DNA of 64,000 nucleotides, from contig CAYFHS010000019.1 in the NCBI GenBank assembly GCA_964342815.1, positions 1-64,000 of the forward strand, given 5' to 3'. Position 1 is the first letter of the stretch; each line of letters starts with the position of its first letter. This stretch comes from an uncultured archaeon. GTDB lineage: Archaea; Thermoplasmatota; Penumbrarchaeia; JASLWR01. Shown one piece after another: positions 59,141 to 64,000 of the stretch. A model generated the notes under the pieces. That model was given only the letters and a program-made list of their open reading frames with translations. It was not told the DNA's origin and searched no databases. The translations under genes were made by a program, and so were the position numbers.

Positions 59141-59779
59141 CTATGGAATAAAATCGAATAGCTCGGGCCCGATCATAACGGAGATCATATACTTGTTGTC
59201 ATAAATATGGAAATCCTTCATTTGTACGTTCTTCATCTTCGCTATCTCGAATGAGAATTTATTCATTTCCGGTATCGAACTGAAACTGAACATCAGTTTT
59301 TGTTCCGAGAGGACCTTGTCCCGCAGATCGTTAACGAGCTTCAGCGCGGCTTTGACCTCGTCAATGGTGGTAACTTTCTCCGATTCCCGCTGGTCCTTCC
59401 GCTTCAATGCCTCGGAAACCGTCAGCATCAGCTCGTCGTTATCCCAGGGTTTGCCTATGTAACTGTATACGTGGGCCTTGTTAATAGCTTCCTTTGCTAT
59501 GTCTATGTCTGAAAAACCAGTAACTAGTATTCTTATTGTGCTGGGCCAGATCTCCTTTGCTCTTCCCAGAAGTTCCACGCCGGTCATTCCCGGCATCTTG
59601 TAATCAGCGAGAATAAGGTCATATTCCTTTTCCACCAGCTTTCCGAGAGCTTCATTTCCATTGGATGATGTGGTAACCTCACATTTAAAATCATCAGAAA
59701 ATTCCAGAATCTTCGATAGAGAGTCCAAAATATTCTCCTCGTCGTCCACTACCATTATACGATAGGTTTTCTTGGCCAC
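59141..59779 (-). CDS. Response regulator: receiver domain plus unrecognised C-terminal domain
   Basis: IMVVDDE, DLILADYKMPGMTG (phospho-Asp), TG and GKPW motifs. Confidence 0.92.
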   Translation of the reverse strand: MAKKTYRIMVVDDEENILDSLSKILEFSDDFKCEVTTSSNGNEALGKLVEKEYDLILADYKMPGMTGVELLGRAKEIWPSTIRILVTGFSDIDIAKEAINKAHVYSYIGKPWDNDELMLTVSEALKRKDQRESEKVTTIDEVKAALKLVNDLRDKVLSEQKLMFSFSSIPEMNKFSFEIAKMKNVQMKDFHIYDNKYMISVMIGPELFDFIP

Positions 59780-59816
59780 TTGATCCGCTCCTAGGTCGCT
59801 TATCTACTATAGTTAT

Positions 59817-60986
59817 TCAGGACGTTATTGGAACTTTAATCGTCATTGATGTCCCCTTCCCTGCCTTGCTTTCCACCTGAATGTCGCCGTCATGGTCCTT
59901 TATTGTCCGATAGCTTATACTGAGTCCGAAACCGGTACCGCTGTCCTTGGTGGTGAAGAAGGGATCGAATATCTTGCTTATTATATCCTCGGGTATTCCC
60001 TTACCGTTATCTCGTATCTGGATATAAATATTTTGGCCATCACGCCAGGTTTTTATCCATATGTCTCCCTTTCCCATGGACTGGGAGGCATTGATGATCA
60101 CGTTCATGAACACCTGGTTCAGTTGGCCAATGTTGCACTTGGTCTTGGGAATGTCGCCGTAATCGTCGTGTATCTCGATCCGGTGTTTCAACCGGTTGGT
60201 CAAGATTATAAGAGTGTCGGCAATCCCCTCGTTTATATCGGCAGATGCCTTTCCGCCCGTATCCGGTCTCGCAAATCTCTTCAATGTTTGCGTTATCTTC
60301 GATATCCTGTTGATCCCCTCTATGTTAATCTTAATGTCCTTGTCGATCTGCTCCAGGATCTCCGTATCTATCTTCTTTCCGTCCCAGCGCCTTTTCAATA
60401 CCGATATCTTCTTTTCTATGAACTGGGTGTTGGATTTGATGTATGCCAGAGGATTGTTCACCTCGTGTGCGACGCCTGCCACAAGCTGGCCAAGTGCCGC
60501 CATCTTTTCCGATTGAATAAGACCGTATGTCTGCTGCCTTACTTCCTCTTCCAGGTGTTCGGTGTATTTGATAATTTTTTCTTCCATCTGTTTGCGCTCG
60601 ATTGCATATCGTATGGACCGCACCAGAAAATAGCTGTTGACCTTTCCCTTGATGAGATAGTCCTGCGCTCCCACCTGTACGGCTCGTAGACCCAGCGATT
60701 CATCCTCGAAACCGGTCAGGACTACTATAGGTACGGTGGGTTCCCTTTCGTATATCCTTCCCACGGTCTCAAGACCTTGACTGTCCGGTAATGTGAGGTC
60801 CAGAAGTGTCACGTCGAACCAATTTTCCTTGAGTTTAAGGAGAGCTTCATCGAGACGCTCCACGTGAACCAGTCTGAACTGGGCCGCGGGTTTCGCATCC
60901 GCCAGCATTTCCCTGATCAATCGGGCGTCCCCGGGATTGTCTTCCACCAGCAGTATCCTGATCGCCCTCACCGTCATATAATTCAC
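59817..60986 (-). CDS. Hybrid receiver-histidine kinase (REC-HisKA-HATPase, NtrB-like kinase core)
   Basis: LLVEDNPGD...LLDLTLPD; [10 protein letters not shown]; [23 protein letters not shown] and GTGFGLS motifs. Confidence 0.95.
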
Positions 60987-61429
60987 TCCTTTGGCAGTCG
61001 TACTATGGTCAGCCAGAACTCTTCAATGGACTTTACCACCTTGATGAACTGGTTCAGGTCCACAGGTTTTGTCACGTAACAATTGGCTCCAAGGCCGTAA
61101 CTCTTCAAGATATCGATCTCCGCGTTCGAGGTAGTCAATACAACCACGGGTATACGCTTCAAATTATTATCACCCTTTATCTCGGCCAGAACCTGCCGCC
61201 CGTCCATTTTTGGCAGGTTCAGATCCAGCAAGATAAGGTCGGGACGAGGAGCTTTGTCATACTTGCCTTCACACCGGAGAAATGTCATTGCCTCTTCACC
61301 GTCTCTCACCACACAGAGATTGATCCGCATCTTTCCTTCTTCCAGCGCTTCGATGGTAAGACGCACGTCCCCGGGATTGTCTTCCACCAGCAGTATCTCG
61401 ACTATCCTGCCGTAATCATCAACGTTCAT
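60983..61429 (-). CDS. Single-domain response regulator (Rcp1-like)
   Basis: [54 protein letters not shown] 61429 overlaps the kinase stop region. Confidence 0.95.
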
Positions 61430-63155
61430 ACTCGTTCGCCTCTTTCCTTTTAGGTATGGTGAAGTAGAAGGTGGAGCCCTCACCCGCTTTCGAAATCACC
61501 CATATGCGTCCACCGTGCCGTTCCACGATTTTCTTGCAGACCGCGAGGCCGATACCTGTTCCTGGATATTCCGCTTTTGTGTGTAGGCGTTGGAATACCT
61601 GAAATATCCTATCGGCGTGCTGGGTTTCGATCCCTATGCCATTGTCCCGGACGGTGAAACAGTACGCCTCTTCATTCTCCTTTACCGAAATGTGTACGCT
61701 GGGACTCTCCTTCCCCCGGAACTTTATCGCGTTTCCAATGAGGTTCAGGAATAGCTGGGCAAGCTGGGTGTCATCGGCCATAACAGTGGGCAACGTACCC
61801 CGGGTTACAACGGCACCGTTCTCCTTAATTGACATTTCCAGATCGCTCAAAGTTTGATCCACAACCTTTGAACAGTCAGTTGCTAAAAACGGCTTTTTAC
61901 GCGTTCCTACCCGGGAGTATGTCAATAGGTCATTGATAAGCCTTTTCATTCTCGTAGCCCCGTCCACGGCGTAAGCTATGAATTCGAGGGCATTCTTGTC
62001 CAGTTTGTTCTTGTATCGACGCTCCAGCAACTGAACGTAACTGGCCACCATTCGCAGAGGTTCCTGAAGATCGTGAGATGCGATATAGGCAAACTGCTCT
62101 AACTCCTTATTAGACCGGCTCAACTCCTCGGTTCGCGCTTTGATCTCGTCCTCGAGGTGGCTCCGGTGCTCCATCAATTCTTCTTCGGCCCGCACCCGTT
62201 CACCTATCTCGAGTTGCAATTGGACATTGGCTTCCGTCAACTGGGCGGTACGCTCCTTCACCATATCCTTCAGTGCATCCCGATACATCTTCAGTTCCGC
62301 TTCAGCCTGCTCCCGCTCGTCGATCCCGCTTTGCATTTCCGCCTGAATTCGCTTTGATGCTTTATACGATATAAAAAGAATGACTAAACCCGATATTATG
62401 AAAATTATGGATAGTATTTCTGGATAGCCGAAGTAATTATTTTTTTCCTTTTCAGGGAGGTCCATGGGAAGAGTGGGACAATCGAGCATGGTGAATATCT
62501 CTACCGCCGCGTAAGTGGAATACATATCCCTGCCGTACTGACCTGGACCCGCTTTCTGATCCATGATGAAGTGGAGAATGGGTAAGCGCTCCAGTGCCTT
62601 TGTTTGTCCGGAATTCTCAAAAAAACGCACCGCGGCATATGTACCGTGAAGCGAAACATTCCCATCAATTTCATGAATATATCCCGCAAAAGCACCTGTT
62701 CCCGAGCGCTGATATTTTTTTATTATATAATCTGTGATTTTTTCCAGTGACATTTTCCCCTCCACAAAATCCAATTTCTCGGTTTCGTTATTACCACCGA
62801 GCCACCACAGGGCATTAAAGGCATTATATGTTCCGTAGATCTCGGAGGCTTTTTCTCCAGGTTTGTCCGAGTATCCGCCATCAACAGAAGAAAGACTGCT
62901 GTCGACGAAACTTGCCACGTTGATAATATAGCTTGACTCGAAGTTCTTACCCTGGTGCCCGTTTATTATTCCCAATGCATTTATGGCTTTAGAGGTGCAT
63001 TTCATGGTTGAAGTCATTCCATCTTCCGTGTATTCCTCATCCCAGAAACCCCCGTCGGGATTCCTGTGAGCATTGATGAAATTTTCGATGCGGGTCAGGT
63101 TCAGTTCCGGCTGGTCCAATCCACCAAGCATTTCAAGTGACTTCAATGCCTCCAA
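61419..63155 (-). CDS. C-terminal part of frameshift-split sensor kinase: prenyltransferase-repeat-like outer domain, TM, coiled coil, phytochrome-type HisKA-HATPase
   Basis: [19 protein letters not shown] and [10 protein letters not shown] repeats; TM; [14 protein letters not shown]; [19 protein letters not shown] and GTGIGL motifs. The frame is open upstream to 63215. Confidence 0.9.
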
Positions 63156-63655
63156 TGTTGTCCTGATTCCCGGTGAGTTCTCATAGCTTCCCCGAAATCC
63201 TGCAAAACGTTCCCTTCACCCGGCTTGTGATAGCTTATGTTACCAAGCAAACTATGGGTAAATTCGATATTTGGAACATAGCAGTCCATTAGATAATTCA
63301 AAGTAGCTTTGTGGTCTATGGACTCGAGGGAATCGAATAAAGAAAGAATGGATATGGCAAATCTCGTTGTTATCAAAGTCTTTGAATTTCTTTCATCCGG
63401 CTCATTAACAAGATCCGGATTATTCACGAAGTAACCCTGGGAGTTCTGACAGGACGCGATATATTCCACGATCTCTCCGGGATCATAATGAACATTTTCC
63501 TGCCTGTATTTTTCCATAGCTTCCCGGTACTCGGCATCTTCGTCCTCATCCTGTGACTGACGCACGGATGAATAGGCCCAAAGGTAAACTCCGGAAAATA
63601 TTAAGCTCAACGCCAGCACAAGTGCATACATTGACCTTGATTTCAATTTCACCAT
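63143..63655 (-). CDS. N-terminal part of the same sensor kinase (TM1 plus first prenyltransferase-like repeats)
   Basis: TM (ALVLALSLIFSGVYLWAY); IVEYIASCQNSQGYF; overlaps the kinase ORF in another frame. ATG 63655 preferred over track start 63724. Confidence 0.75.
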   Translation of the reverse strand: MVKLKSRSMYALVLALSLIFSGVYLWAYSSVRQSQDEDEDAEYREAMEKYRQENVHYDPGEIVEYIASCQNSQGYFVNNPDLVNEPDERNSKTLITTRFAISILSLFDSLESIDHKATLNYLMDCYVPNIEFTHSLLGNISYHKPGEGNVLQDFGEAMRTHRESGQHWRH

Positions 63656-63738
63656 GCAATCGACTCTTCCTTCCCTTTGTTCTTTCCCCCGCCGGAGAAC
63701 TTTTGGGAAGCTTATTCCCAACAAATTGTACCTTTATA

Positions 63739-64000
63739 TTAATAAAGAGCATGATCCTTTGCTCTCTTGTAAGACTTTTCGGCCTCTTCCAATCTCACCT
63801 CGTCACCAATCTTTCTTGAAATGGCCATCTCCTGCTCGAAACATTCCATTGCCTGGGGGAACATCAGCCAATAAATATAGATCTCACCTTTGAAATGAAG
63901 TATCGAAGCCAGTTCCATTTGGGATATGTCCTTATCCTCGAGAACTTCGAGGATGTTCAAGAACTCCTCGAAATGATGATCTGCCATGATGTCCATTCCC
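63739..64000 (-). CDS. TPR-like protein, possibly 5'-truncated by the window edge
   Basis: LASILHFKGEIYIYW...AMECFEQEMAISRKIGD TPR-like helix pair; frame is open to position 64000. Confidence 0.65.
   Translation of the reverse strand, partial: GMDIMADHHFEEFLNILEVLEDKDISQMELASILHFKGEIYIYWLMFPQAMECFEQEMAISRKIGDEVRLEEAEKSYKRAKDHALY

Follow-up and report, generated by a model that had tools for sequence, protein, structure and literature searches.

Few extracytoplasmic sensor folds are catalogued, and most of these are of Cache/PAS-like, four-helix-bundle and periplasmic-binding-protein (PBP) types. The classical modules of histidine kinases and diguanylate cyclases (Cache/PDC, 4HB, CHASE, PBP-type and NIT) sit between a first and a second transmembrane helix (TM1 and TM2) ahead of an output domain, and one kind of sensor serves several outputs. 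Protein prenyltransferases are obligate heterodimers of a beta subunit with an alpha subunit built of PPTA repeats. The beta-subunit barrel binds isoprenoid chains, and its catalytic Zn2+ triad, Asp/Cys/His, which prenyl transfer requires, lies where two successive inner helices begin. The region around the inner-helix starts is the substrate funnel, which holds the diphosphate. Here we describe a locus that combines features of both systems. It lies in a stretch of 64,000 nucleotides (hereafter called the window; positions 1 to 64,000 of contig CAYFHS010000019.1, assembly GCA_964342815.1) from an uncultured marine archaeon of the Thermoplasmatota, and comprises a frameshifted histidine kinase gene and three genes with receiver domains. 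We consider it likely that the kinase is a membrane sensor whose ectodomain, a non-catalytic prenyltransferase-beta barrel with a ligand-binding funnel, receives the signal, that this sensor belongs to a mobile cassette, and that the kinase heads a receiver relay.

The outer domain is predicted to have the barrel fold of a prenyltransferase beta subunit. Two AlphaFold (AF2) models carry this conclusion. The first is of the ectodomain of a homologue (L025) that is 47% identical to the window protein (pLDDT 95.7, pTM 0.92), and was built from a sensor-only alignment of 24 rows (A3); it consists of a stalk helix and then 12 helices arranged as six outer/inner pairs. The second is of the sensor of P0168, a protein from this same species (pLDDT 91.4, pTM 0.84). 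In this model a single helix (residues 23–76) is TM1 running on into the ectodomain as the stalk, and the C-terminus of the barrel is joined to TM2 by a conserved, extended, Pro-rich segment. A Foldseek search of the PDB with the L025 model placed the GGTase3/RabGGTase beta subunits first (E 3.7e-10), followed by GGTase-I and FTase beta and then by class II terpene cyclases. In an independent VIA-align structural search against all representatives, the same model matched GGTase-I beta (1n4p_B) at Z 29.5, with a root-mean-square deviation (rmsd) of 2.8 Å over 286 residues and 18% identity. The beta subunits of GGTase3 (Z 27.9) and FTase (Z 26.6) came next, and clearly lower stood terpene cyclases (Z 18–22, with squalene-hopene cyclase at Z 21.9), glycosidase/epimerase-type barrels (Z 16–19) and thioester domains (Z 16–17). 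P0168 matched RabGGTase beta (3dss_B) at Z 30.4, with an rmsd of 2.2 Å over 281 residues and 16% identity, in a colinear alignment of model residues 79–418 with chain residues 17–305. Moreover, the family profile reaches RabGGTase beta by sequence alone (E 3.5e-7). A sequence-only reading of the window had foreseen an alpha/alpha barrel; both models give an (alpha/alpha)6 toroid whose nearest solved structures are prenyltransferase beta subunits.

How close is the likeness? The beta subunits of RabGGTase (GGTase-II), GGTase-III, GGTase-I and FTase (PF00432; 3dss_B, 6o60_B and 1n4p_B) have the same toroid of six helix-hairpin repeats with GGF-type turns, colinear over ~280 residues at Z ~30 and rmsd 2.2–2.8 Å (281–289 residues), yet they are only 14–19% identical to the sensors compared. 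Unlike these cytosolic proteins, the window family is placed outside the membrane between two transmembrane helices, lacks the zinc triad and an adjacent alpha subunit, and is fused to signalling outputs. It also has an additional N-terminal stalk helix and conserved loops of its own (GYFVxNPD..EP and another). Class II terpene cyclases (squalene-hopene cyclase 1gsz, MstE 6sbb and drimenyl diphosphate synthase 8zg0) share the superfold and repeat type at Z 18–22, but they are beta-gamma pairs, whereas the window family is a single barrel without the DxDD motif and scores lower against them than against the prenyltransferases. Compared with the classical sensor modules, the family shares their topology but is a 340-residue, all-helical closed toroid. 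It is tethered to TM2 by a Pro-rich extended segment rather than by a continuous helix, and its TM1 continues as a long helix.

All of the kinase gene lies on the minus strand. Once joined, it spans 63655..61419 and encodes 745 residues (148 + 1 + 596): TM1, toroid, TM2, helical linker, and HisKA plus HATPase_c. In the window it is divided between two open reading frames (ORFs). ORF-A (193 residues, 63143..63724) holds the 5' piece, and ORF-B (578 residues, 61419..63155) holds the 3' piece in a frame that stays open upstream, back to 63215. We take translation to begin with the ATG at 63655, inside ORF-A, because the N-termini of the homologues P0001 and P0168 coincide with it. Frame A then supplies TM1, the stalk helix and toroid repeats 1–2 (63212..63655), and frame B supplies repeats 2–6, the Pro-rich tether, TM2, an ~85-residue helical linker, HisKA, HATPase_c and the stop (61419..63209). 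TM1 (63572..63631) follows a cytoplasmic N-terminus rich in Lys and Arg. TM2 (62364..62417) precedes the K/R-rich start of the cytoplasmic linker, and its position is constant in all homologues; both helices were located from sequence. The intervening toroid (62472..63490; 12 helices in six repeats, ~340 residues) contains the frameshift site. Prenyltrans (PF00432) matches both pieces above its Pfam cut-off of 26.5 bits (ORF-A 27.0 bits, ORF-B 28.4 bits), and this family matches every homologue too. The output is a class I histidine kinase: HisKA, the dimerization and histidine phosphotransfer (DHp) domain, lies at 61905..62102 with the H-box SHDLQEPL (Pfam 43.3 bits), and the HATPase_c catalytic (CA) domain lies at 61446..61775 (Pfam 104.1 bits) with a visible GTGIGL motif. 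Solved kinases match this core (E 5e-49), the closest being the unnamed kinase 8f71 and bacteriophytochrome kinase modules (E 4e-37).

Much of this anatomy had been anticipated by the sequence-only reading. Its ORF positions are correct, the six repeat motifs it quoted are all present, and its count of at least five prenyltransferase-type repeats becomes six. The proposed protein of ~745 residues, with TM1, repeats, TM2, linker and kinase in that order, is borne out by colinear alignment with intact homologues. Its term 'phytochrome-type kinase' stands as a resemblance to bacteriophytochrome kinase modules.

Indeed, homologues leave little doubt that the two pieces belong together. A word-index search with the sensor part as query found intact proteins of 744, 773 and 870 residues with Prenyltrans, HisKA and HATPase_c, as well as proteins of 599–615 residues with Prenyltrans and GGDEF. 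Both window pieces align colinearly and end to end with the intact 744–870-residue proteins (72–80% identity to P0001), and their reading as one gene is therefore not chance. Scans of genome and metagenome collections returned 28 loci, 22 of them distinct, and in all 22 the order TM1, sensor, TM2, output is encoded by a single ORF. The suspicion that the ORFs might be separate genes in homologues found no case in its favour among these loci and ~12 database proteins. When we searched 1.84 billion representatives with the family profile, 406 matched, only 19 of them with E < 1e-30. These 19 mostly match in one stretch, and the complete ones span the whole profile; the remainder are generic multi-repeat Prenyltrans proteins. 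On these searches the sensor family looks small and sharply bounded. The window's own genome, which is archaeal (Ribosomal_S3Ae 238 bits; controls respond in archaea only), has a single Prenyltrans gene.

The same TM1-toroid-TM2 cassette is fused to five different outputs: GGDEF, HisKA plus HATPase_c, HisKA_2 plus HATPase_c, PAS plus DUF835, and a multi-TM domain. The GGDEF fusions are found in marine Gammaproteobacteria; those recorded come from Sedimenticola, Thiotrichales, Chromatiaceae, Thiolapillus and Kangiella, as well as from a single metagenome-assembled genome (MAG) of the Krumholzibacteriia. Archaeal fusions carry HisKA or HisKA_2 kinases, PAS-DUF835 or the multi-TM domain; the HisKA_2 plus HATPase_c form comes from two MAGs labelled 'uncultured archaeon'. 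A maximum-likelihood tree of the sensor alone (midpoint-rooted for drawing only) places all non-GGDEF forms, the window protein included, in one clade (support 100/99). Changes of output fall within this clade, which leaves out the GGDEF forms. Input domains can usually be recognised in this way, as a constant TM1-domain-TM2 unit whose outputs are swapped, and on this ground we read the cassette as a probable mobile input module. In the PAS plus DUF835 forms (P0011 and P0014) the C-terminal end has no Pfam match; by eye it is winged-helix-like, which would make these proteins membrane-bound regulators resembling one-component systems.

A full-text literature search found no description of a prenyltransferase-fold sensor domain, although papers beyond the searched set may exist. 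In a census of cyclic di-GMP (c-di-GMP) sensory domains (PMC8846402), the word 'prenyltransferase' occurs 0 times. The sequence-only reading knew of no literature on this sensor-kinase pairing, and that holds in the full-text search, though automatic annotation at JGI already names one homologue 'histidine kinase/prenyltransferase beta subunit'. The cassette would add to the catalogue a structurally unrelated and confidently modelled input module without a catalytic metal site, used with at least five outputs in archaea and bacteria. It also offers a concrete target for ligand discovery, and the c-di-GMP output of the bacterial forms is easy to read. Kangiella, Sedimenticola and Thiolapillus are genera with cultured representatives.

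The toroid is probably a binding module rather than an enzyme. The following counts refer to a family alignment of 26 rows (A4), with residues numbered as in P0168. The Asp/Cys/His zinc triad is absent from the family. There is no conserved Cys column, the only partly conserved one being C243 in repeat 3 (77%), and the sole invariant His is H220, in the NPDGGFWDE loop. By the colinear register, which is inferred at the level of single residues, the triad-equivalent positions would be S358, K360 (His in the window protein) and S/T403. None of the 26 family members contains DxDD (D.DD). Absence of the zinc triad and of DxDD therefore argues that the toroid is non-catalytic. A search with the alpha-subunit model PPTA (PF01239) gave no match near the locus, only borderline TPR-like matches on other contigs of the genome (best 29.9 bits, cut-off 29.5) of a kind that control archaea also give.

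What is conserved instead is mainly charged, polar or aromatic: R92, R121, R188, R249, R301, K360, D104, E108, D192, D224, D229, D400, W228, Y297, Y402 and Y405. Many of these residues stand at inner-helix starts, and by analogy with the prenyltransferases this region would be a polar, Arg-rich binding funnel. The toroid also appears to be extracytoplasmic. The K/R-rich flanks of TM1 and TM2 lie on the sides away from it, as the positive-inside rule would have them for a toroid outside, and its four N-x-S/T sequons fit an outside location. At two funnel positions (~62639–62650) the window protein departs from its family: Lys360 is replaced by His and the usual His363 by Tyr. Lys360 is also replaced in its closest relatives, P0001 and P0002 (His and Gln). 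These altered positions may mean a changed ligand in this subclade.

Three genes follow the kinase on the minus strand, and all three Response_reg domains are clear in Pfam. The first gene encodes a single-domain receiver, REC1, of 148 residues (60983..61429, in an ORF of 60983..61483). REC1 matches RcpA (E 2.2e-46 over residues 11–146) and Rcp1 (E 1.5e-42) along its full length, C-terminal extension included, and is an Rcp1/RcpA-type stand-alone receiver, as had been proposed for it. The exact 148-residue protein is recorded on 8 contigs. The second gene, with a GTG start, encodes a receiver-controlled kinase, REC-HisKA-HATPase_c (59817..60986), and the third encodes REC3, an RpfG/HupR-type receiver with a tail of ~90 residues (59141..59779). 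Pfam gives both of these genes the domains claimed for them earlier. The REC3 tail (residues ~128–212) is 64–100% identical in nine metagenome proteins, all of ~168–221 residues. It has no recognisable family, and in an Atlas search it drew no feature match and resembled small alpha/beta proteins (TusA- or RraB-like, TM-score 0.5–0.6) only weakly. None of the three window receivers has a DNA-binding domain.

The start of REC1 overlaps the kinase stop by 11 nucleotides, the GTG start of the receiver-controlled kinase overlaps the REC1 stop (GTGA), and 37 nucleotides separate that gene from REC3. Given these overlapping and tight junctions, the kinase and the three downstream genes look like one operon. 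Receiver genes directly follow the kinase in other archaeal loci too: a REC and then a REC-PAS-kinase in L026, a REC-PAS-kinase directly in L010 and L012, and a REC and then a REC-GAF-HD_5 in L025. Among described systems, Cph1–Rcp1 and bacteriophytochrome pairs resemble the window's kinase core and first receiver, but the window lacks their photosensory module. The REC-HisKA-HATPase protein matches the model of Leptospira LvrB end to end. The NCBIfam scores against LvrA and LvrB are far under the cut-offs (179 versus 1200 bits; 147 versus 500 bits), and the likeness is one of layout and not of membership.

From these parts we propose a mechanism. A ligand would probably bind in the funnel made by the N-termini of the six inner helices, at the conserved cluster of Arg, Lys, Asp and Tyr. 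TM1, TM2 and the long helical linker would carry the binding event to the DHp/CA core, and the kinase would respond by phosphorylating its RcpA/Rcp1-like neighbour, the receiver of the second kinase, or both. The second kinase would act on the third receiver, the one with the small tail. We infer both the site of ligand binding and the order of phosphotransfer.

What became of the gene in this organism? Three-frame translation of 63000–63305 shows that the join is a -1 shift between GGG (63214–63212) and CGT (63209–63207). Only two bases, AA, separate these codons, where the homologues have one codon. Frame A reads ...HKPGEG and, past 63212, yields 23 wrong residues before it stops at 63143; in frame B, (R)ERFAGFRGSYENSPG... 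has the form of a typical repeat. P0168, found on one ENA contig from the same population, reads ...KPGEGERFAGF... across this site unbroken, which implies GGGG AA, and the window's GGG AA (63210..63214, minus strand) therefore lacks one G of a G4 run. This one-base deletion is predicted to inactivate the gene in the present assembly. From there on, P0168 and the window protein agree at 100% for 257 residues. P0168 then has A6 in place of the window's A7 run (62440..62446, minus strand, in frame in the window, local sequence A-AAA-AAT), which ends the P0168 protein prematurely just before TM2. There are two alleles, carrying two different homopolymer indels and otherwise undamaged.

We lean towards the view that the gene is a decaying pseudogene, that the break is real at the population level and not an assembly error, and that the system is now headless. 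By exact-sequence look-up, 6 contigs (NCBI, Logan and ENA) carry the truncated ORF-A product of 193 residues with its frameshifted tail, and a seventh contig has this tail as well. No match was returned for three further gene-call variants (one of ORF-A, two of ORF-B) looked up in the same way. Tempering this view, the contigs with the truncated product may be re-assemblies of the same reads, the alleles are identical over 257 residues but for their two indels, and the downstream genes are intact. At the least, this genome offers a documented case of a sensor gene inactivated by homopolymer indels. Bypass of the break by programmed -1 ribosomal frameshifting or transcriptional slippage is highly improbable: the shift does sit at a homopolymer, and A-AAA-AAT at the second site resembles a heptamer known to be slippery in one archaeal gene, but GAA-GGG-AAC is not of the X-XXY-YYZ type, none of the homologues requires a shift, and an allele with the additional G exists. 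We rejected programmed frameshifting on the grounds that the site is not slippery and the homologues are all unbroken.

Several of the results weigh against our reading of the kinase as a prenyltransferase-fold sensor. The Pfam Prenyltrans scores of its two pieces are only just over the cut-off. It is only the repeat register, together with the colinear structural alignment, that places the conserved residues in a funnel. Bacterial gene neighbourhoods give no hint of a ligand. Finally, no intact allele is among those recorded, the gene being broken here and, at another site, in the only other allele, and the kinase gene may be non-functional in this organism.

The identity of the ligand is a separate question, and we favour no answer strongly. 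It is possible, though we would not count on it, that the ligand is polar and no isoprenoid (for example a glycan, a peptide, a corrinoid or another metabolite), with the fold serving merely as scaffold. The (alpha/alpha)6 toroids of many hydrolases and epimerases bind carbohydrates, and such barrels match at Z 16–19; Asp, Asn, Trp and Tyr abound in the most conserved motifs (GYFVxNPD..EP and another). Prenyltransferase beta subunits nevertheless score ~10 Z units above any glycan-active barrel, and Prenyltrans is the sole Pfam family that matches by sequence.

The sequence-only reading had put forward, as a hypothesis, sensing of archaeal isoprenoid lipids, quinones or terpenoids. In a sharper form, the ligand would be an isoprenoid that has an anionic head and is bound on the outer side of the membrane (for example a polyprenyl or dolichyl carrier in its phosphate or diphosphate form, a prenyl diphosphate or a prenylated peptide), and the toroid would so monitor the state of the envelope lipid carriers. 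We think this unlikely on present evidence. The nearest folds are those of isoprenoid-diphosphate-binding beta subunits. The five arginines, the lysine and the tyrosines of the conserved set (Y297, Y402 and Y405) stand at or near the starts of inner helices, where prenyltransferases hold the diphosphate, and the short Pro-rich tether keeps the barrel close to the membrane. On the other hand, the zinc site is lost, the conserved Asp, Asn, Trp and Tyr residues are equally suited to sugars or peptides, no isoprenoid genes are conserved beside the gene, and the window protein itself has His at K360 and Tyr at the usual H363. If true, prokaryotic two-component and c-di-GMP signalling would have in this family its first input domain devoted to sensing isoprenoids, derived from the fold that eukaryotes use for prenyl diphosphates and common to archaea and bacteria; an isoprenoid carrier as ligand would newly link the status of envelope lipid carriers to signalling.

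We think it very improbable that the toroid is no receptor but works outside the cytoplasm as an enzyme to which signalling domains are joined. Its invariant polar residues (H220, D224, D229, E108 and D104) could form an active site, and the relatives of the fold are enzymes. Against this, neither the zinc triad nor DxDD is present, the kinase has no alpha-subunit gene beside it, and the toroid sits between two transmembrane helices ahead of five different outputs, a position typical of input domains.

Gene neighbourhoods vary. Across the 22 loci, neighbour clustering found no neighbour conserved family-wide; synteny is confined to close Sedimenticola relatives (CbbQ-like AAA, MoaE and DUF533). 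Immediately upstream of the window kinase, also on the minus strand, a gene at 63739..65559 (L045:240-2060) runs past the window end. It encodes a 606-residue protein with an N-terminal Crp-like helix-turn-helix, a STAND-type NTPase (AAA_22/NB-ARC/NACHT matches) and a helical C-terminus. This winged-helix-turn-helix STAND protein might be the missing DNA-binding output; its gene is not conserved beside the homologues in other loci.

With the query used, no orthologue was found in 40 relatives, members of the same genus and family included; they gave weak generic repeat matches in ORFs of ~916–944 residues and one ORF of 314 residues. Related archaea (G011, G026, G033 and G036; loci L002–L008) encode surface proteins of 900–1250 residues with many tandem prenyltransferase-type repeats, in some cases with a C-terminal anchor; these proteins, of which P0023 is another, do not belong to the sensor family. 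An IS200-like (Y1_Tnp) transposase gene (L025:6908-7291) immediately precedes the intact homologue L025 on a marine-sediment metagenome contig.

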